From: a virus
Virus genome (UHGV): UHGV-0213024
Length of the DNA: 41,352 nt
Reading direction: 5' to 3' (one strand)
The first letter of the stretch is position 1. Every line of letters starts with the position of its first letter. A model generated the notes under the pieces. That model saw only the letters and a program-made list of their open reading frames with translations, was not told the origin of the DNA and searched no databases. Positions 129-41,253 of this stretch are shown in pieces. Position numbers and translations under genes: made by a program.

Positions 129-341
129 TTATTCTTTCTCGTCAAAATTAATAGTGTCCTCTACTGTGATACTTTGTACTACTCCCAACCTTCCAATCTC
201 TATTGCATGTTTCTTACATATTCGCATAGTTTTCCTTTTCTTTTTTCCATCTGGAAAACGAAGAGTAGATTCCATCTCAAAATCCATGCGATTCCAACAC
301 CCCTTACACTCACAAAATCCCACCAAGCCTTTTATTCCCAC
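129..341 (-). CDS. Hypothetical protein (70 aa, Cys-containing)
   Basis: GTG start with AAGGAAGGA RBS, co-oriented in the early operon. Confidence 0.6.
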   Translation of the reverse strand: MGIKGLVGFCECKGCWNRMDFEMESTLRFPDGKKKRKTMRICKKHAIEIGRLGVVQSITVEDTINFDEKE

Positions 342-724
342 GATTCATCATCCTTCCTTAAAAAATCTCCGTTTAACGGAACAAATGGTTCTGGCTCCGG
401 CAACCAAGCAATCACATCTAAAAGCCATTCATCGTCAGTTGACCACCACTCCTTTCTGTTGACATCGTAATAACCAACATCAACATTTCCATGCCTCACC
501 GTAACATGTACTACTCCACCATCTTCCGGAACCCGCTCCGTCACTGGTATCCAGCCGGTCAGCAATTTTCCATCCGTGATCTCCTCCGGCGACAGGCCGG
601 TATCCTCATAGGCTTTAAGCCGCCAGTATATCGTCATGGCCTGCTCTTTTACCGCCCTAATATCAATAACCGCCCGTCTTAATCCGCCCTCTATTGGCTC
701 GTCAGGTATTGTTAATCTTTCCAT
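332..724 (-). CDS. DUF551-like phage protein
   Basis: MERLT N-terminus, RLKAYEDTGLSPEEI, WIPVTERVPE ... VIAWLPEPEP; AGGAGG RBS. Confidence 0.75.
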   Translation of the reverse strand: MERLTIPDEPIEGGLRRAVIDIRAVKEQAMTIYWRLKAYEDTGLSPEEITDGKLLTGWIPVTERVPEDGGVVHVTVRHGNVDVGYYDVNRKEWWSTDDEWLLDVIAWLPEPEPFVPLNGDFLRKDDESWE

Positions 725-743
725 TGCTTTTCCTCCTTAAATT

Positions 744-974
744 TCAGTTTTGCGGAACAAATGCTTCTGCCAATGTTGCTTTGCTAATCTCTATCCAACC
801 AAAATCATCCGAACCGCTAACGCATTCTAGGTGGATTTCTCCGCCGCATATACTTGAGGTTTTATTTTCCACCCAGATACTTCCCTGCTTCACATATCCG
901 TATTTATTCGGTATTTCAAATCCGTCTCCATCGCATTGCGGTATCCATAATTCTTTTATACACTTATATTCCAC
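744..974 (-). CDS. Hypothetical protein
   Basis: GTG start with AGAAAGAAGG RBS; stop codon lies inside a junction motif. Confidence 0.65.
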   Translation of the reverse strand: MEYKCIKELWIPQCDGDGFEIPNKYGYVKQGSIWVENKTSSICGGEIHLECVSGSDDFGWIEISKATLAEAFVPQN

Positions 975-1100
975 GGTTATACCTTCTTTCTGTAAACCCC
1001 TAATTCGCCGGCGCCGGAGCTGCCGGAAGTTTCAGTTTTACGTATTAATCGGGCAATCCTGCGGAGAGGTGATGTTTTCGCAGGATCTCCCCGGTAAATA

Positions 1101-1388
1101 TCAAGCTTCCTGTTTTAAAATATTTTGAATATCACGGATATGTCGCCGAATACCTCCGGTCTTTTCTGGTCCCAAGTCAACGCACATGTCTTCCACGGCT
1201 TCCATTAAGTTACTAACCATACCGCCCAATTCGTTTTCTGCGACATATTTTTTATATATCAAAGTGCCATTTTCTGTAAAAAGTTCTAGTTGTGTTCCCT
1301 CGGCTATTCCCATTGTTCTTCTTACTGTTTTAGGAATAACAATCCTTCCTAAGTCATCTACGCGCTTTACAATACCTGTTGCTTTCAT
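1101..1388 (-). CDS. AbrB/SpoVT-family DNA-binding protein
   Basis: MKATGIVKRVDDLGRIVIPKTVRRTMGIAEG is the classic AbrB/SpoVT N-terminal motif. Confidence 0.9.
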   Translation of the reverse strand: MKATGIVKRVDDLGRIVIPKTVRRTMGIAEGTQLELFTENGTLIYKKYVAENELGGMVSNLMEAVEDMCVDLGPEKTGGIRRHIRDIQNILKQEA

Positions 1389-1427
1389 ATCTTCTCCCTT
1401 CCTCCGGTTCTTCCGGAAATCCTAATT

Positions 1428-1817
1428 TTACAGATGAAGAGATTTTAAAATTTGTTGCCGTTCCTCTTCCGCCTGTTCTAAATCTATGTCGAAAAATTCT
1501 GCCAGTAACTTTTCTGGATTTATATGGTCGCCAGCTCCAACATATCCAAATTGTTCTCTCGGTAAAGATGGGTCAAATAAGGCATACTTACTACGAATAA
1601 AATCCAAAAAATCACCGCAAATACGCGAAGCCGGTTCAACCGCTTTTATTTTTTCCAACATAGGATACTGTTCTTTTTCTGATTCTTCCTGCTCAAATCT
1701 ATCCGGTTTATAATCTTCCGCTTCCTGTCCTACATACTGTCTCTTACAATCCAAGCACAGCGTATTTATAAATCCTTCTTTTGCTCTATTCTTACAAACA
1801 TCACAATCCCACATCAT
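1428..1817 (-). CDS. Hypothetical protein with CxxC...CxxC N-terminus
   Basis: ORF with GGAAAGGAAG RBS, flanked by the 12-bp direct repeat AAATTAGGATTT. Confidence 0.7.
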   Translation of the reverse strand: MMWDCDVCKNRAKEGFINTLCLDCKRQYVGQEAEDYKPDRFEQEESEKEQYPMLEKIKAVEPASRICGDFLDFIRSKYALFDPSLPREQFGYVGAGDHINPEKLLAEFFDIDLEQAEEERQQILKSLHL

Positions 1818-1837
1818 TGCACTTCCTTTCCTAAATC

Positions 1838-2734
1838 CTAATTTAGCAAAATTTTTTTTGCAGTTTCTACGTCTCTCTGATCTATATCATGGGGCAAATT
1901 ATCATAATAATCTCCATAATAAAGTTCATTCTCATAAGCTCGAAAAGAATTCTGTTTCCACAGTTCTTCATTTGCTGTGTCCAACTCTTCATACCTTTTT
2001 TGTACTCCATAGATATACCAATCCATAACATCGTACTTTGTTTTCCAACGGTCAAAGTTCCGGCCTTCCAACATTTTTTCAAACGCCCACAGATATGCCT
2101 TTTCAAAATTAGGCCATCTTCTAAATTCTCTAATAATTTTTTTATAGTATGTAAGCGGACATCCCACACACCCAATACGGTCAAATCCTTCATCGTATAA
2201 ACAAGGGTATGGTATATGATTATCGTCTATCACTCTCCATAGTTGTTCATCTGTCCAGTCAATAATTGGATGATAAAATTCTACCCCTTTATCCAACTGG
2301 CAAGTTTCCCACTTTCCACGATTTCTACGCTTGACACTCTCCGCTTTGCGAACTCCTGTCAATGTCAAAACGTCTCCGCCTTTGGGACATGTATTACGTT
2401 CTTTAAATTCTTGACAACAATACCTGCAAACTCTCGTGGGCGGGAATCCTTTCTGTATAATCATTTTAAACATCGATGTTCTTGGCTTTTCTTCAATTAC
2501 ATCTTTATGGTATTTGTGTATAAAATCAAGAAGCTCTGGTGGATCTACACTTGTTCGGCTAAATCTTGTCTGATATGGAACTCCAGACTGTTCAAATAGC
2601 CATTTTAAAACAACGCTATCTTTTCCTCCCGAAAAACGTACACACATGGTTTTATTTTTTGATATGGCACGTATCTCTTTGATTGCTTTTCCGACATAAT
2701 CACCATATACAGGTAAATCCATTTGTCCTCTCAT
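1838..2734 (-). CDS. PAPS reductase-family (PP-loop) protein
   Basis: FSGGKDS PP-loop, CRYCC..FKE, LTGVRKAES..R, PIIDWT, RIGCVGCP. Confidence 0.9.
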   Translation of the reverse strand: MRGQMDLPVYGDYVGKAIKEIRAISKNKTMCVRFSGGKDSVVLKWLFEQSGVPYQTRFSRTSVDPPELLDFIHKYHKDVIEEKPRTSMFKMIIQKGFPPTRVCRYCCQEFKERNTCPKGGDVLTLTGVRKAESVKRRNRGKWETCQLDKGVEFYHPIIDWTDEQLWRVIDDNHIPYPCLYDEGFDRIGCVGCPLTYYKKIIREFRRWPNFEKAYLWAFEKMLEGRNFDRWKTKYDVMDWYIYGVQKRYEELDTANEELWKQNSFRAYENELYYGDYYDNLPHDIDQRDVETAKKILLN

Positions 2735-2802
2735 TATCCCTAAAAGGTTCCGTGTACACTCTCCCGGCCGGGGAACGGCTCCTTTCTTGTTTAAATATTG
2801 GT

Positions 2803-3435
2803 TTACAGCATCACTTTTTCTTCAAAAGTCAGCGCTTTTTTCTGCAAGTTTTCAAGTAGTTTTGGTATATTCAGCCTCTTAATTGTATCAGCCGCAAGCT
2901 GGTCTTTGAGATTTTGCTCGAGCGTTTTAAGTACCATTTCTTCTGCTTCTCCTTTTGCAGTTTGGATCATTTCGCTAACCTGTCCCGCTAAGCTCTTCTG
3001 CAAATATTTATCTATAAAGTATTCATTGATTGACACCTGCTTATCACCGTTGTAAGAAGCCACATTTCCGTTTTTATCAAATACTTTTTTATTCAGATAA
3101 TTCTGATATCTCTCTCCTACGTACTCGCTCATGGGCATATATTTAACTTCATCGCTCCACGAGTTCGTCTTATATGGGATCTGCATTTTAGCAATGCTCT
3201 CTTCGCATATGCGACCAAGAAAATCATCGATCTTTTTGTCTATAGATTCTTTCGCTTGTTCGATCTTTTCTAAAATTACTTCGTCTACCGCTTTTACTGC
3301 CTCTTCGGTAGCCCTTTTTAGTAGCTGTTCCTTTACGCCTCTTACTACCTGATCTCTGATTTCATCATCAATAGATATACCTTCTTCGCAGTTATCTATC
3401 CAATCAAGCTCAACCTCAATATTAAATTTTGCCAT
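2803..3435 (-). CDS. Hypothetical phage protein
   Basis: 210-aa ORF with AAGGAGG RBS. Confidence 0.75.
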   Translation of the reverse strand: MAKFNIEVELDWIDNCEEGISIDDEIRDQVVRGVKEQLLKRATEEAVKAVDEVILEKIEQAKESIDKKIDDFLGRICEESIAKMQIPYKTNSWSDEVKYMPMSEYVGERYQNYLNKKVFDKNGNVASYNGDKQVSINEYFIDKYLQKSLAGQVSEMIQTAKGEAEEMVLKTLEQNLKDQLAADTIKRLNIPKLLENLQKKALTFEEKVML

Positions 3436-3499
3436 TGATTTATCCTCCTTCTTAAAATTATTGCTTTCCCCGCCCGCTGGGTACAGGCGGGGAACACAA

Positions 3500-4219
3500 T
3501 TAGTGTAATACTATTACTTCCGGGAATATTTTCAGCTCATTTACTAAGTAATTATGGATAGACTCCATAGCGGCCGTTTTCCATGCACCACCATCAGCCT
3601 CGAACAGTGCGCAACCGATTTCTCCACTTCGATCCCTCATTCGAAATACAAACTCACTTAATGGCTGCTGTACCTCTTTAAAAGTGCGGTATGGCTGCAA
3701 TTTCACAGGATTTGGAACTATTGCATCCTCTTTTCCTGCTATGCCTTTACGGATTGTTACTTTCTGACTGATGCCGTCATCACCGTATGTATCCGCGGAT
3801 CCTGCTTCAACAGTTCCTGCAAACTTAATGATTAGGTCCCGGTCCTCATTTTTTATAAATTTTGACCGTAGGGCGATCAAAAAACTTTCATGGTCAATAT
3901 ATGACTCATATCTAAATTCTGGTGTCTCTGCATTGACAGCGACTAAGCACTCCCTCTTGCGATCTTCATCCAGGCATGAAAGAAGCTTCACTTCCGTCGG
4001 TGATTCTATGTGTACCAGCAGCTTTCCCTTAAATTGATCTGCATGGCTGCTGATATATGTTACAAGGCTGGTCAGCGTTGACATATTTAACGGCACTGCA
4101 CGCAGTTCTTTGTCTATCCGGCTTAACTTTTTGTCAGTATATGTCTCCCCTTTTATGTCGGTAATGTATGCATTATTCAAATTTACAAGATATTCTAAAG
4201 CTCCTCTTAATCCATCCAT
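3500..4219 (-). CDS. Conserved hypothetical phage protein
   Basis: VPNPVKLQPYRTF.EV.QP.S.F.FR and ALFEADGGAWK motifs of a common Firmicutes phage family. Confidence 0.8.
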   Translation of the reverse strand: MDGLRGALEYLVNLNNAYITDIKGETYTDKKLSRIDKELRAVPLNMSTLTSLVTYISSHADQFKGKLLVHIESPTEVKLLSCLDEDRKRECLVAVNAETPEFRYESYIDHESFLIALRSKFIKNEDRDLIIKFAGTVEAGSADTYGDDGISQKVTIRKGIAGKEDAIVPNPVKLQPYRTFKEVQQPLSEFVFRMRDRSGEIGCALFEADGGAWKTAAMESIHNYLVNELKIFPEVIVLH

Positions 4220-11409: not shown

Positions 11410-11423
11410 TTCGCACCTCCTTT

Positions 11424-11513
11424 GTTGATTTACATTCACTATAGCACCGCCGTGAATAATTGTCAACTGTTTTTAACAAAATTGTTGATTTTTTTTCACT
11501 TCTATGATATTAT
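11424..11513. promoter_or_regulatory. Lysis/lysogeny switch: divergent promoters and operators
   Basis: Minus TTGACA-17-TATAGT (11466-11438); plus TTGATT-17-TATTAT (11485-11513); operators GTTGA-N6-TTCAC at 11424-11439, 11452-11467 (inverted), 11484-11499; similar site at 11189-11204. Confidence 0.75.
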
Positions 11514-11538
11514 CACTTTATCGGAAGGTGGTGTCTGC

Positions 11539-12200
11539 ATGCTTGAATTATATAAAAATATTAAACGGTTGCGAGAAGAAAAAGGAATGTCACAAGATGC
11601 GCTAGCTAAACTCACGGGATATACTGATCGTTCCTCTATTACCAAGATAGAAAAGGGCCAAGTTGATTTGCAGCAATCAAAAATAGAATTGTTCGCAAAA
11701 GCACTAGGTACTACTCCAGGTGATTTAATGGGATGGACGGAAGAAACCTATTCTATACCCCATAAATCATATACGGACAGTATTTACACTTATGATAATC
11801 TCTACCCTATCGAATTGAAGAAATTCCCTCTTTTAGGTGAGATAGCATGTGGAGAACCTATCTTTGCTAGTGAGGACAGGGAGTCATACATATAGCTGGA
11901 ACAAACATCAAGGCTGACTTCTGCTTAAAGGCTAAGGGTGATAGCATGATTAACGCTCGAATCTTTGATGGCGATATTGTTTTTATTAGAGAACAGCCTT
12001 CCGTCAATGATGGAGAAATCGCCGCTGTCATTATAGAAGATGAGGCAACGTTAAAGAGAACATATTTTAATCGAGAAAATAATACATTGCAGCTTGTAGC
12101 GGAAAATCCCGCCTACAGACCACTAATATACACAGGAGAATCGTTAAATACAATTCGCATTCTTGGTAAGGCTGTAGCGTTCCAGAGTGATGTTAGATGA
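11539..12200 (+). pseudogene. CI-like repressor (XRE HTH plus S24 peptidase), split by a 1-nt frameshift near 11892
   Basis: HTH and LLGEIACGEP cleavage loop end at TAG 11893-11895; the -1 frame continues IAGTNIKADFCLKAKGDSMINARI...ATLKR...GKAV to 12200. Confidence 0.85.
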
Positions 12201-13764: not shown

Positions 13765-14826
13765 ATGCCAGCATATCTGGACGAAAAAACAAAAATGTGG
13801 TACTGCAAATTCTATTATCAGGATGCTGCCGGTATCCGGCACCAGAAACTCAAGAGAGGCTTCAAGCTCCAGCGGGAGGCCAAGGCCTGGGAGCGTGAAT
13901 TCCTGGCAAATCAGCGGCTTAATCCGGACATGACTTTCCAGGCCCTATATGACATATATATTGAGGACATGAGCCACCGGCTTAAACCGTCTACATACAA
14001 CGTCCGCAAGCATCAATTTGCCGCCAGGATGTTGCCTTTTTTTAAAGACAAGCCGATCAGTGAGATCAAGCCCGCAGATGTCCGGCGCTGGCAGAACACA
14101 TTGATCTCTGACAATGCCAGCCCGACATACCAAAGGACGCTGCACAGCCAGCTAAGCGCTATTTTTAATTATGCTGTCAAATACTGCGGACTCAAGTCCA
14201 ATCCATGCCGCATTGCTGGGCGCATAGGAAAGCAAAAGGGTGAGAGCATGGACTTCTGGATACCTACAGAGTTTGAGGCCGCTATGAGGCAAATAACGGA
14301 TCCAGAGATACACCTTATACTGGATATGCTATACTTTGGCGGGTTCCGCAGCGGCGAACTACTGGCCCTTACACCGGATGATTTGGATTTTGATTCTGGT
14401 CAGATCAATGTGGACAAGTCCGTCCAACGTATCGGTGGCCAGGACATCGTCACGTCTCCCAAGACAGACAACAGCATCCGGGTGGTCCCTATGCCGCTTT
14501 TTGTGATGCAGGAAGCCCAGGGGTATGTTAATCGCCTGTACGGCATCAGGCGCAAGGACCCGATTTTCCATGTTTCCCGGGACGTACTCCGGGACCGGAT
14601 CGGCAAGGCAGCGGCGGCGGCCGGCGTCAAGAGAATCCGCTTGCACGATACCAGACACTCTCATGTCTCCCTGCTGATCGATCTGGGATTCACCCCGATG
14701 CTGATAGCGGAGCGCATCGGTGATACCGTGGACATGGTCAACAATACATACGGACACCTGTTCCCCAATCGGCACGCAGAGGTGGCAACCAAATTGCAAC
14801 AATTTAAAAAAATAGTATCAAATTAG
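13765..14826 (+). CDS. int: Phage integrase (tyrosine recombinase with Arm DNA-binding and SAM domains)
   Basis: WYCKFYY...KRGFK arm domain; GFRSGE, PKT, LHDTRHS, TYGHL; AGGAGG RBS. Confidence 0.95.
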   Translation: MPAYLDEKTKMWYCKFYYQDAAGIRHQKLKRGFKLQREAKAWEREFLANQRLNPDMTFQALYDIYIEDMSHRLKPSTYNVRKHQFAARMLPFFKDKPISEIKPADVRRWQNTLISDNASPTYQRTLHSQLSAIFNYAVKYCGLKSNPCRIAGRIGKQKGESMDFWIPTEFEAAMRQITDPEIHLILDMLYFGGFRSGELLALTPDDLDFDSGQINVDKSVQRIGGQDIVTSPKTDNSIRVVPMPLFVMQEAQGYVNRLYGIRRKDPIFHVSRDVLRDRIGKAAAAAGVKRIRLHDTRHSHVSLLIDLGFTPMLIAERIGDTVDMVNNTYGHLFPNRHAEVATKLQQFKKIVSN

Positions 14827-15027: not shown

Positions 15028-15158
15028 TTGACATTTTCGCATAATTTGCATATACTATAAATGCAGATAGAAATATGCTGTATACCTGTGTAACCGAATT
15101 AACGTTTAAGCGACATGTAATGTCGCCGGCCGCAGGGACCGCCGAAAGGCGGTTTTTT
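15028..15158 (+). ncRNA. Putative structured small RNA D
   Basis: TTGACA-17-TATACT (15028-15056); GAAA-capped hairpin 15061-15083; stem 15085-15136 with GCGACAT/ATGTCGC; terminator ACCGCC-GAAA-GGCGGT plus T-run. Confidence 0.7.
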
Positions 15159-15345
15159 GTTATCAAGGAGAAGTCAAAGCTTTGGGGTGCGAACCGGAGG
15201 ATCTGATATGAAATGCGTAATATATGGATGATGACTGAAAATGTAACGAAAAGGACGTATAAAAGAATCATAGAATGCTGTTTTAATCTTTAGCAACAAT
15301 AAATCATAAAAATATGTACTTTTTTTGAATTTTTATGTGTATAGA

Positions 15346-40015: not shown

Positions 40016-41053
40016 TTATGCCGCCCGGCGCCGTACACTTCGCAGCGTGTCCGCCGTAGACTCGGCATAGTATTTTGATGTCGTTGACGGGCTTTGATGG
40101 CCCAGTACCTCCTGGATCATACCGATATCTACACCCTTGTTTTTGAGATCCATACCCAGAGTCTTTCGCAGTTTGTGTGGGTACACCCTGCACTGGACTC
40201 CGGCCCTCTCCGCAATCTCCTTGAGCTTGATACGGATCGTAGCCGATGACAACGGATTGTGTGGCCGCTTGTACGACGCCAACAGCGCCGGCGATTGATC
40301 GGTACGTGTATCCAGGTATTTTTTGAGATGATACCGGGCTGGCTCATCCAAGTAGATTGTCCGATATCCTCCCCGTTTCTCTCCTAAAATCATGATGTCT
40401 CCGGTCATCCAGTCAATATCATATCGGTCGATCTGCGCCAGCTCCCCGACACGGACACCGGTACTCCGCAGCACCTCAATAATCGCCCGGTCCCGCAGAT
40501 CCCCGCATCCCTCCCGCAACTGCTCAAGCTCGGAGTCACGGAAATAGTCGATCGGCTTCCGCGGTGCCTTTTTGGGCTGCGTGCTGTCTACCGGATTGTC
40601 GTGGATCAGTTTCTCTTTCCGCATCCAGCTGAAAAAGGCGGAAAGGAACCGACGCTCGTTGTTTACTGTTGTGGCCTGTATCCGGTGTCCGGTAGCCTCC
40701 TGGTTTCGCGTCTCATACCACCGCAGGTAATACGATATATCAATGTCCTCTATCTCTGTCAGGGGCTTGTCAATCAGAGTCAGCAGACGCTTGATGGCGC
40801 CCAGGTACATTTCTTTTGTGCCTTCGGCCAGCTCTTTCTTTTTAAACAGAAACAGGTTGATAATATACTTGTTCTGCTCATCCGTGCTCCGGTGGACTTC
40901 CGCCGGCAGCGTAGTGATCTCCTCCATGTTCACCCTGACAAACTGTGCCTCAATCACCTGCTCAAGTATCCGCAGAGATCCCTGGCCGATATGTGCTGCC
41001 ATTGCCATCAATATTTCCTGCTCGATATTCGTCTTAATCTGCTGGTTCATCAT
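40016..41053 (-). CDS. Second tyrosine recombinase (XerD-like, no arm domain)
   Basis: Intact catalytic set STGVRVGE, K, YPHKLRKT, LGH, Y; AAGGAGG RBS before ATG at 41053. Confidence 0.93.
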   Translation of the reverse strand: MMNQQIKTNIEQEILMAMAAHIGQGSLRILEQVIEAQFVRVNMEEITTLPAEVHRSTDEQNKYIINLFLFKKKELAEGTKEMYLGAIKRLLTLIDKPLTEIEDIDISYYLRWYETRNQEATGHRIQATTVNNERRFLSAFFSWMRKEKLIHDNPVDSTQPKKAPRKPIDYFRDSELEQLREGCGDLRDRAIIEVLRSTGVRVGELAQIDRYDIDWMTGDIMILGEKRGGYRTIYLDEPARYHLKKYLDTRTDQSPALLASYKRPHNPLSSATIRIKLKEIAERAGVQCRVYPHKLRKTLGMDLKNKGVDIGMIQEVLGHQSPSTTSKYYAESTADTLRSVRRRAA

Positions 41054-41071: not shown

Positions 41072-41162
41072 TTGCCTAAGACATACCAAGGTGGTATAAT
41101 GATCTTAGGTTTGAGATTGTGGTAGAAATTCACTTTGGCCGGTGTTCTACCACTATTTTTTT
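41072..41162 (+). ncRNA. Putative antisense sRNA unit in the leader of the second recombinase
   Basis: TTGCCT-17-TATAAT with TG (41072-41100); GTGGTAGAA/TTCTACCAC hairpin plus T7. Confidence 0.5.
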
Positions 41163-41253
41163 GATTATGTAGCCGAACATATTTTCGTAACATACGTTCG
41201 ATTTGAAGTTCTTTTTTTGGGTCCCGGCGCAAAGGCTGGAACCCTGGTAATAA

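Follow-up and report, generated by a model that had tools for sequence, protein, structure and literature searches.

Do temperate phages of gut bacteria trade their small accessory genes at dedicated sites, and if so, with which enzyme? Clean gene swaps in phages are usually attributed to random illegitimate recombination plus selection. The question is raised anew by the virus genome UHGV-0213024, analysed here over its whole stretch of 41,352 nucleotides (the window), in which a row of small genes on one strand is separated by short joints and leads to a second tyrosine recombinase. An initial annotation had read this row as an integron-like array of cassettes moved by that recombinase. From sequence comparison we conclude that the joints very probably are points where related phages gained, lost and swapped small accessory genes, that these joints quite likely undergo site-specific recombination and, with a probability of roughly 0.55, that the sites are recombined by a tyrosine recombinase, probably one of the XerA-like family encoded beside the array, acting in cis or in trans.

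The phage in the window is temperate and of Lachnospiraceae type. It has every module of a temperate siphophage in a single copy (integrase, repressor, replication, terminase, head, tail and lysis), and its lysogeny integrase (13765-14826) carries an arm-binding domain. The early operon ends in the array, which, on a circle that we infer from the complete module order and from an open reading frame (ORF) with a ribosome-binding site (RBS) spanning the join, is continued by the second recombinase gene (41053-40016), a regulator and the terminase.

Crossovers between relatives map to a six-base core

To score sites, a matrix was derived from 524 upstream regions in recombinase-bearing relatives, the window being excluded; the search was seeded with two motifs that both the relatives and the window show, and a run without seeds on 152 regions had found AAATTAAGATTT beforehand. 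The sites follow the consensus WAAA / YTRRNA / TTT, mostly have a stop codon at columns 6-8 with an RBS behind, and are better described as AAA, a 6-bp core and TTT than as the 5-4-5 dyad WAAAY-N4-ATTTW proposed initially.

Breakpoints were compared in a pool of 230 loci plus the window, part of it chosen by motif, and in this pool the ends of shared DNA accumulate at the site. Where only the downstream gene is common to a pair (209 pairs, 54 groups), identity climbs to ~0.96 at column 5, and where only the upstream gene is common (151 pairs, 54 groups), it drops at columns 13-14. The upstream gene is therefore accompanied by columns 1-4, the downstream gene by column 14 and all that follows, and both genes by columns 5-12, and the six-base centre (columns 5-10) is common to both flanking partners. 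The whole core is identical in 173/209 and 129/151 exchange pairs against 9525/29620 unrelated pairs, and the arms and RBS of exchange pairs show no greater likeness than those of unrelated same-core pairs. Since the pool was partly motif-selected, the test was repeated with recombinase-first loci, with a marker-first lineage and with non-TTAAGA sites; each repeat gave the same pattern, the left boundary being least sharp in the small recombinase-first set. Core identity was 29/37 and 23/28 (vs 173/2695) without the motif-selected loci and 96/111 and 54/74 (vs 1567/8645) without the TTAAGA core.

Gains and losses of whole units point to the same position, as the initial annotation had anticipated for breakpoints in relatives. 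There are 17 distinct units, of one gene or several, seen both empty and filled, with the core duplicated, 13 of which have all three cores identical, and several of these pairs set a recombinase-bearing against a recombinase-free phage. The upstream neighbour differs for 71/82 shared genes with a site versus 471/1247 without one. Clean indels sampled without bias, from recombinase-first and array-lineage loci, fell at the site in 9/73 cases (chance 1.4%), and in 0/33 in array-free sets. Promoterless units of site, RBS and ORF have thus been gained, lost and swapped in relatives and, as described below, at site 362 of the window itself. This breakpoint pattern is tyrosine-recombinase geometry.

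The arrays follow a grammar. Sites lie on the coding strand in 65 cases and on the opposite strand in 4, and the stop codon of the upstream gene falls most often at column 6 (185 cases, against 71 at column 1). The same core stands on both sides of a gene in 63/181 cases versus 26.9 in shuffled arrays, most genes not being bracketed in this way. Across 73 distinct arrays, a T-core comes ahead of a C-core 217 times and behind it 16 times, and a C-core closes 52 of the 73. The window follows this T-then-C order from site 1832 on, its first site, 2792, being an exception with a C-core. Cores act only in part as unique addresses of a position, one core recurring many times within an array although the order is kept. 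The 159 bracketed genes fall into 101 families with a median length of 83 aa; 12 families match Pfam and 89 do not. Core sharing, core duplication, crossover position, orientation, order and the association described below are established by comparison.

Some joints are composite, with two adjacent cores (CTGAAA followed by TTAAGA or TTAGGA, offset by 6-7 bp), as at L185:10433-10454 and in L178, L158 and L174, and these are perhaps products of exchange between unlike cores. Given that mixed cores and composite sites occur, core matching is preferred but not absolute.

Sites in the window

The initial annotation had placed a dyad at nearly every gene junction of the array. When scored with a common background, the copies at 362, 738, 1416, 1832 and 2792 stood, those at 1026 and 1095 proved weak, and those at 3454 (score -0.4), 993 (1.0) and 41248 (2.5) are unsupported by the matrix. 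The three highest-scoring matches of the whole window on both strands are 1832, 738 and 1416, while 2792 and 362 rank 5th and 7th on the coding strand. The predicted enrichment over background was borne out: an upstream site scoring at least 9.5 precedes 5/7 array genes versus 2/37 other coding-strand genes (Fisher p=3.7e-4), and the three sites scoring at least 15 compare with a mean of 0.05 in shuffles, 0/500 of which reach three. The expected overlap with stop codons was also found, 5/6 upstream genes stopping at column 0, 1 or 6 of the next site. As a detector, WAAAY-N4-ATTTW was set aside in favour of the matrix, as it is too loose in the window (37 one-mismatch matches) and too strict in relatives; its six exact matches on the coding strand of the window comprise four in the array (362, 738, 1832 and 2792) and two elsewhere.

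Two genes had been described as bracketed by matching cores. This holds for 1428-1817, which lies between TTAGGA cores; sites 738 and 1026, around gene 744-974, do share a CTGAAA core, but the degenerate element at 993 intervenes. TTAGGG cores, one of which may be present at 993, were found in L344. Between the weak sites, positions 1007-1094 hold two ORF-less units of 69 and ~33 bp with hairpins; the 69-bp unit, closed by site 1026, has a DNA fold z of -2.8. No Rfam family matches the joints, and no promoter matches were found on the coding strand inside the array.

Association with a XerA-like recombinase

The candidate enzyme retains all catalytic residues (R201, K226, H293, R296, H319 and Y328). 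It matches PF00589 without a match to an arm-binding domain, its best profile is NF040815, below the cut-off, and XerA is its closest PDB entry both by sequence and by fold; ~55 extra residues at the N-terminus are predicted to be helical. It does not resemble the integron integrase IntI, with 58.9 bits against TIGR02249 (cut-off 265) and an alignment to XerA without the long catalytic-domain insertion. A search at E 1e-50 or better gave 525 relatives. Relatives of this recombinase are located in prophages of Lachnospiraceae and close kin.

Near close homologues of this gene, 229/996 upstream junctions carry a site versus 19/662 downstream junctions. The initial annotation had also suggested that motif and recombinase co-occur, and they do so in both directions, counted by cluster with ancestry uncorrected. 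At least two sites are present in 17/33 recombinase clusters versus 2/41 terminase-selected controls (p=6e-6), these controls being the phages most similar to array phages out of 73 with 7 kb upstream, of which 3/73 have at least two sites. Starting from the motif, the recombinase family is present in 11/42 arrays versus 0/41 controls (p=5e-4). Among the controls only L447 reaches three sites, and it encodes a 38% homologue behind the same leader, its sites having the variant core TGAGGA; L131 and L134 likewise carry a homologue and a variant core, in their case TAAGGA.

The array may also lie downstream of the recombinase gene, as in phiCs5676-1 and some other phages. Phage phiCs5676-1 (OR574845.1, L512:5980-9276), from the type strain Clostridium scindens DSM 5676, combines the recombinase with a downstream array whose cores include TTAGGA, TTAGCA and CTGGCA.

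Cassettes are common to phages with and without the recombinase gene, and in two genomes (G034 and G037) family-bearing prophages occur alongside array prophages that have no close family member in the stretch examined. Together these two observations make action in trans possible.

Mechanism and alternative explanations

By established tyrosine-recombinase chemistry, the enzyme would bind the AAA and TTT arms and exchange strands across the six-base core. Two sites with the same core in one genome would then allow a cassette to be excised or inserted, and same-core sites in two genomes would allow an in-register exchange that preserves the order of cores. With a stop codon in the core and the next RBS behind it, each exchange would leave intact genes, which are predicted to be transcribed from the early operon promoter. 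The enzyme may act from a co-resident prophage, and recombinase-free arrays would be the counterpart of the clusters of attC sites lacking integron integrases (CALINs).

Several observations weigh against this reading. In 31/42 motif-first arrays there is no recombinase gene in the DNA examined, and in one array lineage 47/47 loci lack it within 10 kb, a lineage that nevertheless still exchanges at sites (core identical 29/30 and 14/23). The gene is thus not needed in cis, and the initial claim that the adjacent recombinase does the work in cis is partly contradicted. Five array phages that are at least 90% complete have a single PF00589 protein, which we read as the lysogeny integrase; two of them (L144 and L167) retain the leader or a C-terminal remnant of a lost recombinase gene. 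Conversely, the number of sites is below two in 16/33 recombinase clusters, and one recombinase clade, as placed by a quick-version tree, consists mostly of members without upstream sites. Of the 73 clean indels, 64 lie away from the sites (21 in the shufflon loci treated further on), and the sites are accordingly one favoured route of exchange and not the sole one. At a looser threshold, core mismatches occur in 23/84 and 24/75 groups, and only 4 cassette pairs showed both orders. There is no information outside the 13 columns apart from the RBS, and the conserved arms span 3-4 bases compared with the 11-bp arms of dif. Excision joints were not seen in four contig sets from related strains, a sample that is uninformative on this point.

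The activity of arrays without a recombinase nearby and the existence of recombinase clades without arrays would both fit an alternative in which the sites are true site-specific sites served by another enzyme, a host Xer-type or phage protein, while the neighbouring recombinase has a different job, such as phage dimer resolution. The inner arms resemble difSL and difH, as presented in PMC5357621, and the action of XerC/XerD on Acinetobacter pdif sites offers a precedent. We nevertheless regard this alternative as unlikely, given the strong two-way association of the sites with the recombinase family and the variant cores beside its distant homologues. Moreover, a difSL-like pattern was matched in only 1/5 host genomes, the motif is not enriched in the five host genomes beyond a few matches, and no other gene common to all arrays was seen by inspection. 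Arrays on the chromosome outside prophages were likewise not supported, as the five genomes gave few motif matches and the one examined lay at rplM-rpsI.

A comparably unlikely explanation does without a dedicated recombinase altogether: the motif would be a stop-plus-translation-start signal that forms a boundary for microhomology or single-strand annealing, in the style of promoter early stem-loop elements (PeSLs). It is favoured by the stop codon within the core and the position just before the RBS, by motif-like sequences in one genome (L351:7920-8375, G034) that precede host genes that appear to be rplM and rpsI, by an Erf-like annealing protein encoded by the phage and by the large share of indels found elsewhere; exchange at the RBS itself also occurs, as seen in the X3 contig. 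However, crossovers need only the 6-8 bp core, with no benefit from arm or RBS identity, and the left arm is conserved even though it is not common to the partners. The motif is also rare before structural and core early genes (the downstream junctions given above, and 16/1189 in controls), and exchange by homology alone does not explain the link to the recombinase family. Most improbable is a motif that serves as operator for a regulator, possibly the recombinase-fold protein itself in the manner of MrpR of SPbeta, without any role in exchange. The array does include an AbrB-like gene, and a repressor of tyrosine-recombinase fold that binds a repeated intergenic element is known, as outlined in PMC10516654, but MrpR lacks the catalytic residues, all six of which are kept here, and no promoters were found at the sites. 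Breakpoints that map inside the motif, together with core duplication, largely refute this reading.

We return to the XerA-like family as the preferred enzyme. A broader proposal, which we hold tentatively and at slightly less than even odds, is that Lachnospiraceae gut phages possess their own integron analogue, in which a phage-encoded XerA-like recombinase excises, inserts and trades whole accessory genes at 13-bp core-coded sites, also serving phages without the recombinase in trans, with at least 100 mostly unknown cassette families shared and with a distant branch of the enzyme family operating a tail shufflon. If true, phages would have an integron-like way of shuffling genes, and a recombinase with 13-bp core-coded sites as its targets would make an interesting tool. 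As the crossover maps to a defined six-base core with a candidate enzyme, the question of clean gene swapping becomes directly testable, and the sites delimit a pool of 101 cargo families that are candidate host-interaction genes.

Comparison with known systems

Integrons and CALINs, as described in PMC8618304, consist of tandem, mostly promoterless single-gene units with sites and a tyrosine recombinase, and enzyme-free arrays are also known. The arrays described here are like them in their same-direction promoterless units of unassigned function, the nearby tyrosine recombinase, the enzyme-free arrays and the occasional ORF-less units. They differ in lacking the attC hairpin and the inverse core, in an enzyme that is XerA-like and not IntI, in sites of 13 bp whose partners share a six-base core and in their location, the early operon of a temperate phage. 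For 60 sampled exchange sites the median z of an attC-type fold was ~0, and RYYYAAC stood upstream in 1/246. The designation 'integron-like' is therefore apt for the way of working, including the tandem promoterless units in one direction, but not for membership, which fails on IntI and attC.

The pdif modules of Acinetobacter have 28-bp sites with a six-base centre and 11-bp XerC/XerD arms and move between replicons, according to PMC6449649. Shared features are gene modules whose bounding sites have six central bases, movement between replicons and an enzyme that may act in trans. Here, in contrast, the arms are 3-4 bp and all sites direct, and a difSL-like pattern, taken as a guide to a matching host dif, occurred in only one of five genomes searched. 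A dif module is thus also rejected, as the six-base central exchange region is present but the 28-bp site with 11-bp arms is not. The system is an array of the site-specific gene-cassette type that resembles an integron or a dif module in its working and belongs to neither.

The inner site geometry is that of single-recombinase Xer systems, in which XerS/difSL and XerH/difH have an A-run, a core and a T-run as inner arms (PMC5357621, in outline). These systems also have in common with ours a simple recombinase without an arm-binding domain, with XerA as the nearest solved structure; theirs, however, resolve chromosome dimers at one long site, whereas here many minimal sites lie between cargo genes. 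PeSLs, portrayed in PMC2839356 as repeats of a promoter and a stem-loop terminator that shuffle accessory genes of T4-type phages, are comparable in recurring between genes and in marking where accessory genes enter, leave or replace one another, but the joints here are only 13 bp and contain neither promoter nor terminator. Rin, reported in PMC6109161, is an arm-less tyrosine recombinase of bifidobacterial prophages, distinct from the integrase, with 11-bp crossover sites. Its layout is like that of the distant homologues in L032-L039; Rin and shufflons invert C-terminal fragments between opposed sites, while in the array direct sites flank whole genes. A shufflon was accordingly rejected for the array and fits only L032-L039. 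In the literature searched, which left out most subscription journals and supplements, no description of these sites was found.

Genes of the array and their breakpoints

Table 1 Features of the array and of the recombinase region in the window.
Feature	Position	Strand	Description	Remark
Gene	129..341	-	70-aa hypothetical after the last site	occurs with other upstream neighbours
Gene	332..724	-	DUF551-like, reads through site 362	PF04448 E 0.0028, below cut-off
Joint	362..375	-	core CGGAGA, last array site	score 10.9
Joint	738..751	-	core CTGAAA, contains stop of gene 744-974	score 15.3
Gene	744..974	-	76-aa hypothetical cargo	
Doubtful joint	993..1006	-	possibly TTAGGG core with one extra base	score 1.0, not supported by matrix
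Weak joint	1026..1039	-	core CTGAAA, right arm damaged	score 6.9, closes 69-bp ORF-less hairpin unit
Weaker joint	1095..1108	-	core TTGATA, contains AbrB/SpoVT-like stop	score 8.5
Gene	1101..1388	-	AbrB/MazE/SpoVT-like DNA-binding cargo	PF04014, TIGR01439
Joint	1416..1429	-	core TTAGGA, then short hairpin leader and RBS	score 15.3
Gene	1428..1817	-	129-aa hypothetical between identical TTAGGA cores	best excision candidate
Joint	1832..1845	-	core TTAGGA, PAPS-reductase-like stop at column 6	score 16.9, top of window
Gene	1838..2722	-	PAPS-reductase-domain cargo	PF01507, phrog_424; metagenomic homologues without sites
Joint	2792..2805	-	core CCAATA, first well-supported array site	score 11.7
Gene	2803..3435	-	210-aa gene, function not assigned, upstream of first strong site	homologues in array-free phages; 5' site proposed at 3454 unsupported
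Gene	40016..41053	-	second tyrosine recombinase, 345 aa, XerA-like	candidate enzyme
Promoter match	41072..41100	+	sigma-70 type, TTGCCT-17-TGTATAAT type	overlaps recombinase leader, faces away from gene
Hairpin	41119..41163	+	conserved hairpin with U-tract	predicted short divergent RNA of ~60 nt

The sites of the window show breakpoints of their own (Table 1). Site 362 had been placed just after the end of a DUF551 domain, and the closest homologues of this ORF indeed align only to residue 114-116, ending just before the site, but the DUF551 match is below the cut-off and the ORF reads through. Two contigs (run X2) share gene 129-341 and site 362-375 with the window and part from it at 375 and 377, each leading to a different neighbour, and the array of L344 ends in the same core as that of the window. 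DNA identity of the AbrB-like gene to L192 spans 1430 to 1109, from site to site, and 4/5 homologues of gene 744-974 have a site-like sequence on both sides, as judged by eye. One contig (run X1) matches the upstream gene through site 2792 and diverges at 2784, 8 bp past the site, while that of run X3 has positions 1396-1427 in common with the window and other genes on both sides.

With the PAPS-like gene as bait, 33 loci were found, and all 18 inspected were without sites or recombinase; gene 3500-4219 as bait found no relatives. A 45-bp leader 5' of the PAPS-like gene (2742-2787) is 98-100% identical in L020, L069 and L077 and is possibly a conserved regulatory RNA.

Leader of the recombinase gene

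The leader of the recombinase gene has the promoter match in 42/47 recombinase clusters and an inverted repeat plus hairpin with a CTTKGYCG loop in 33/47. In eight sequences, 7/9 pairs of the hairpin show compensatory change. In Rfam no family was found for this RNA, the hairpin having a weak likeness to ctRNA_pT181 (E 1.3). The promoter points to the array on the strand antisense to the cassettes, and its transcript appears to end in the hairpin after ~60 nt; this divergent RNA possibly provides antisense or attenuation control. Past the hairpin, the window has degenerate GAAC-N4-GTTC-like boxes (41175-41200), which resemble SOS boxes. SOS control of the recombinase is not claimed, the strict box occurring in 1/47 clusters and a looser form in 11/47.

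Distant homologues and other features

In large gut phage contigs of 104-211 kb (L032-L039), a 32% homologue of the recombinase lies between direct and inverted rows of units split by AAATAGTAA. These units are 250-320 bp long, begin ~2 kb ahead of the recombinase gene and reach 4 kb past it, and join in frame, as exchangeable C-terminal ends, to an invariant 70-residue start that follows a gene of 1800-1900 aa; 18/21 clean indels fell at the AAATAGTAA motif. The arrangement looks like a tail-protein shufflon with ~10-14 variable ends. Four AAATAGTAA sites were also seen in L042.

Elsewhere in the window, the repressor region (11422-12200) appears as two ORFs, a helix-turn-helix part followed by a peptidase-like (UmuD-like) part, and a DUF3800-I RNA motif (102 bits) lies near the integrase at 15056-15164.

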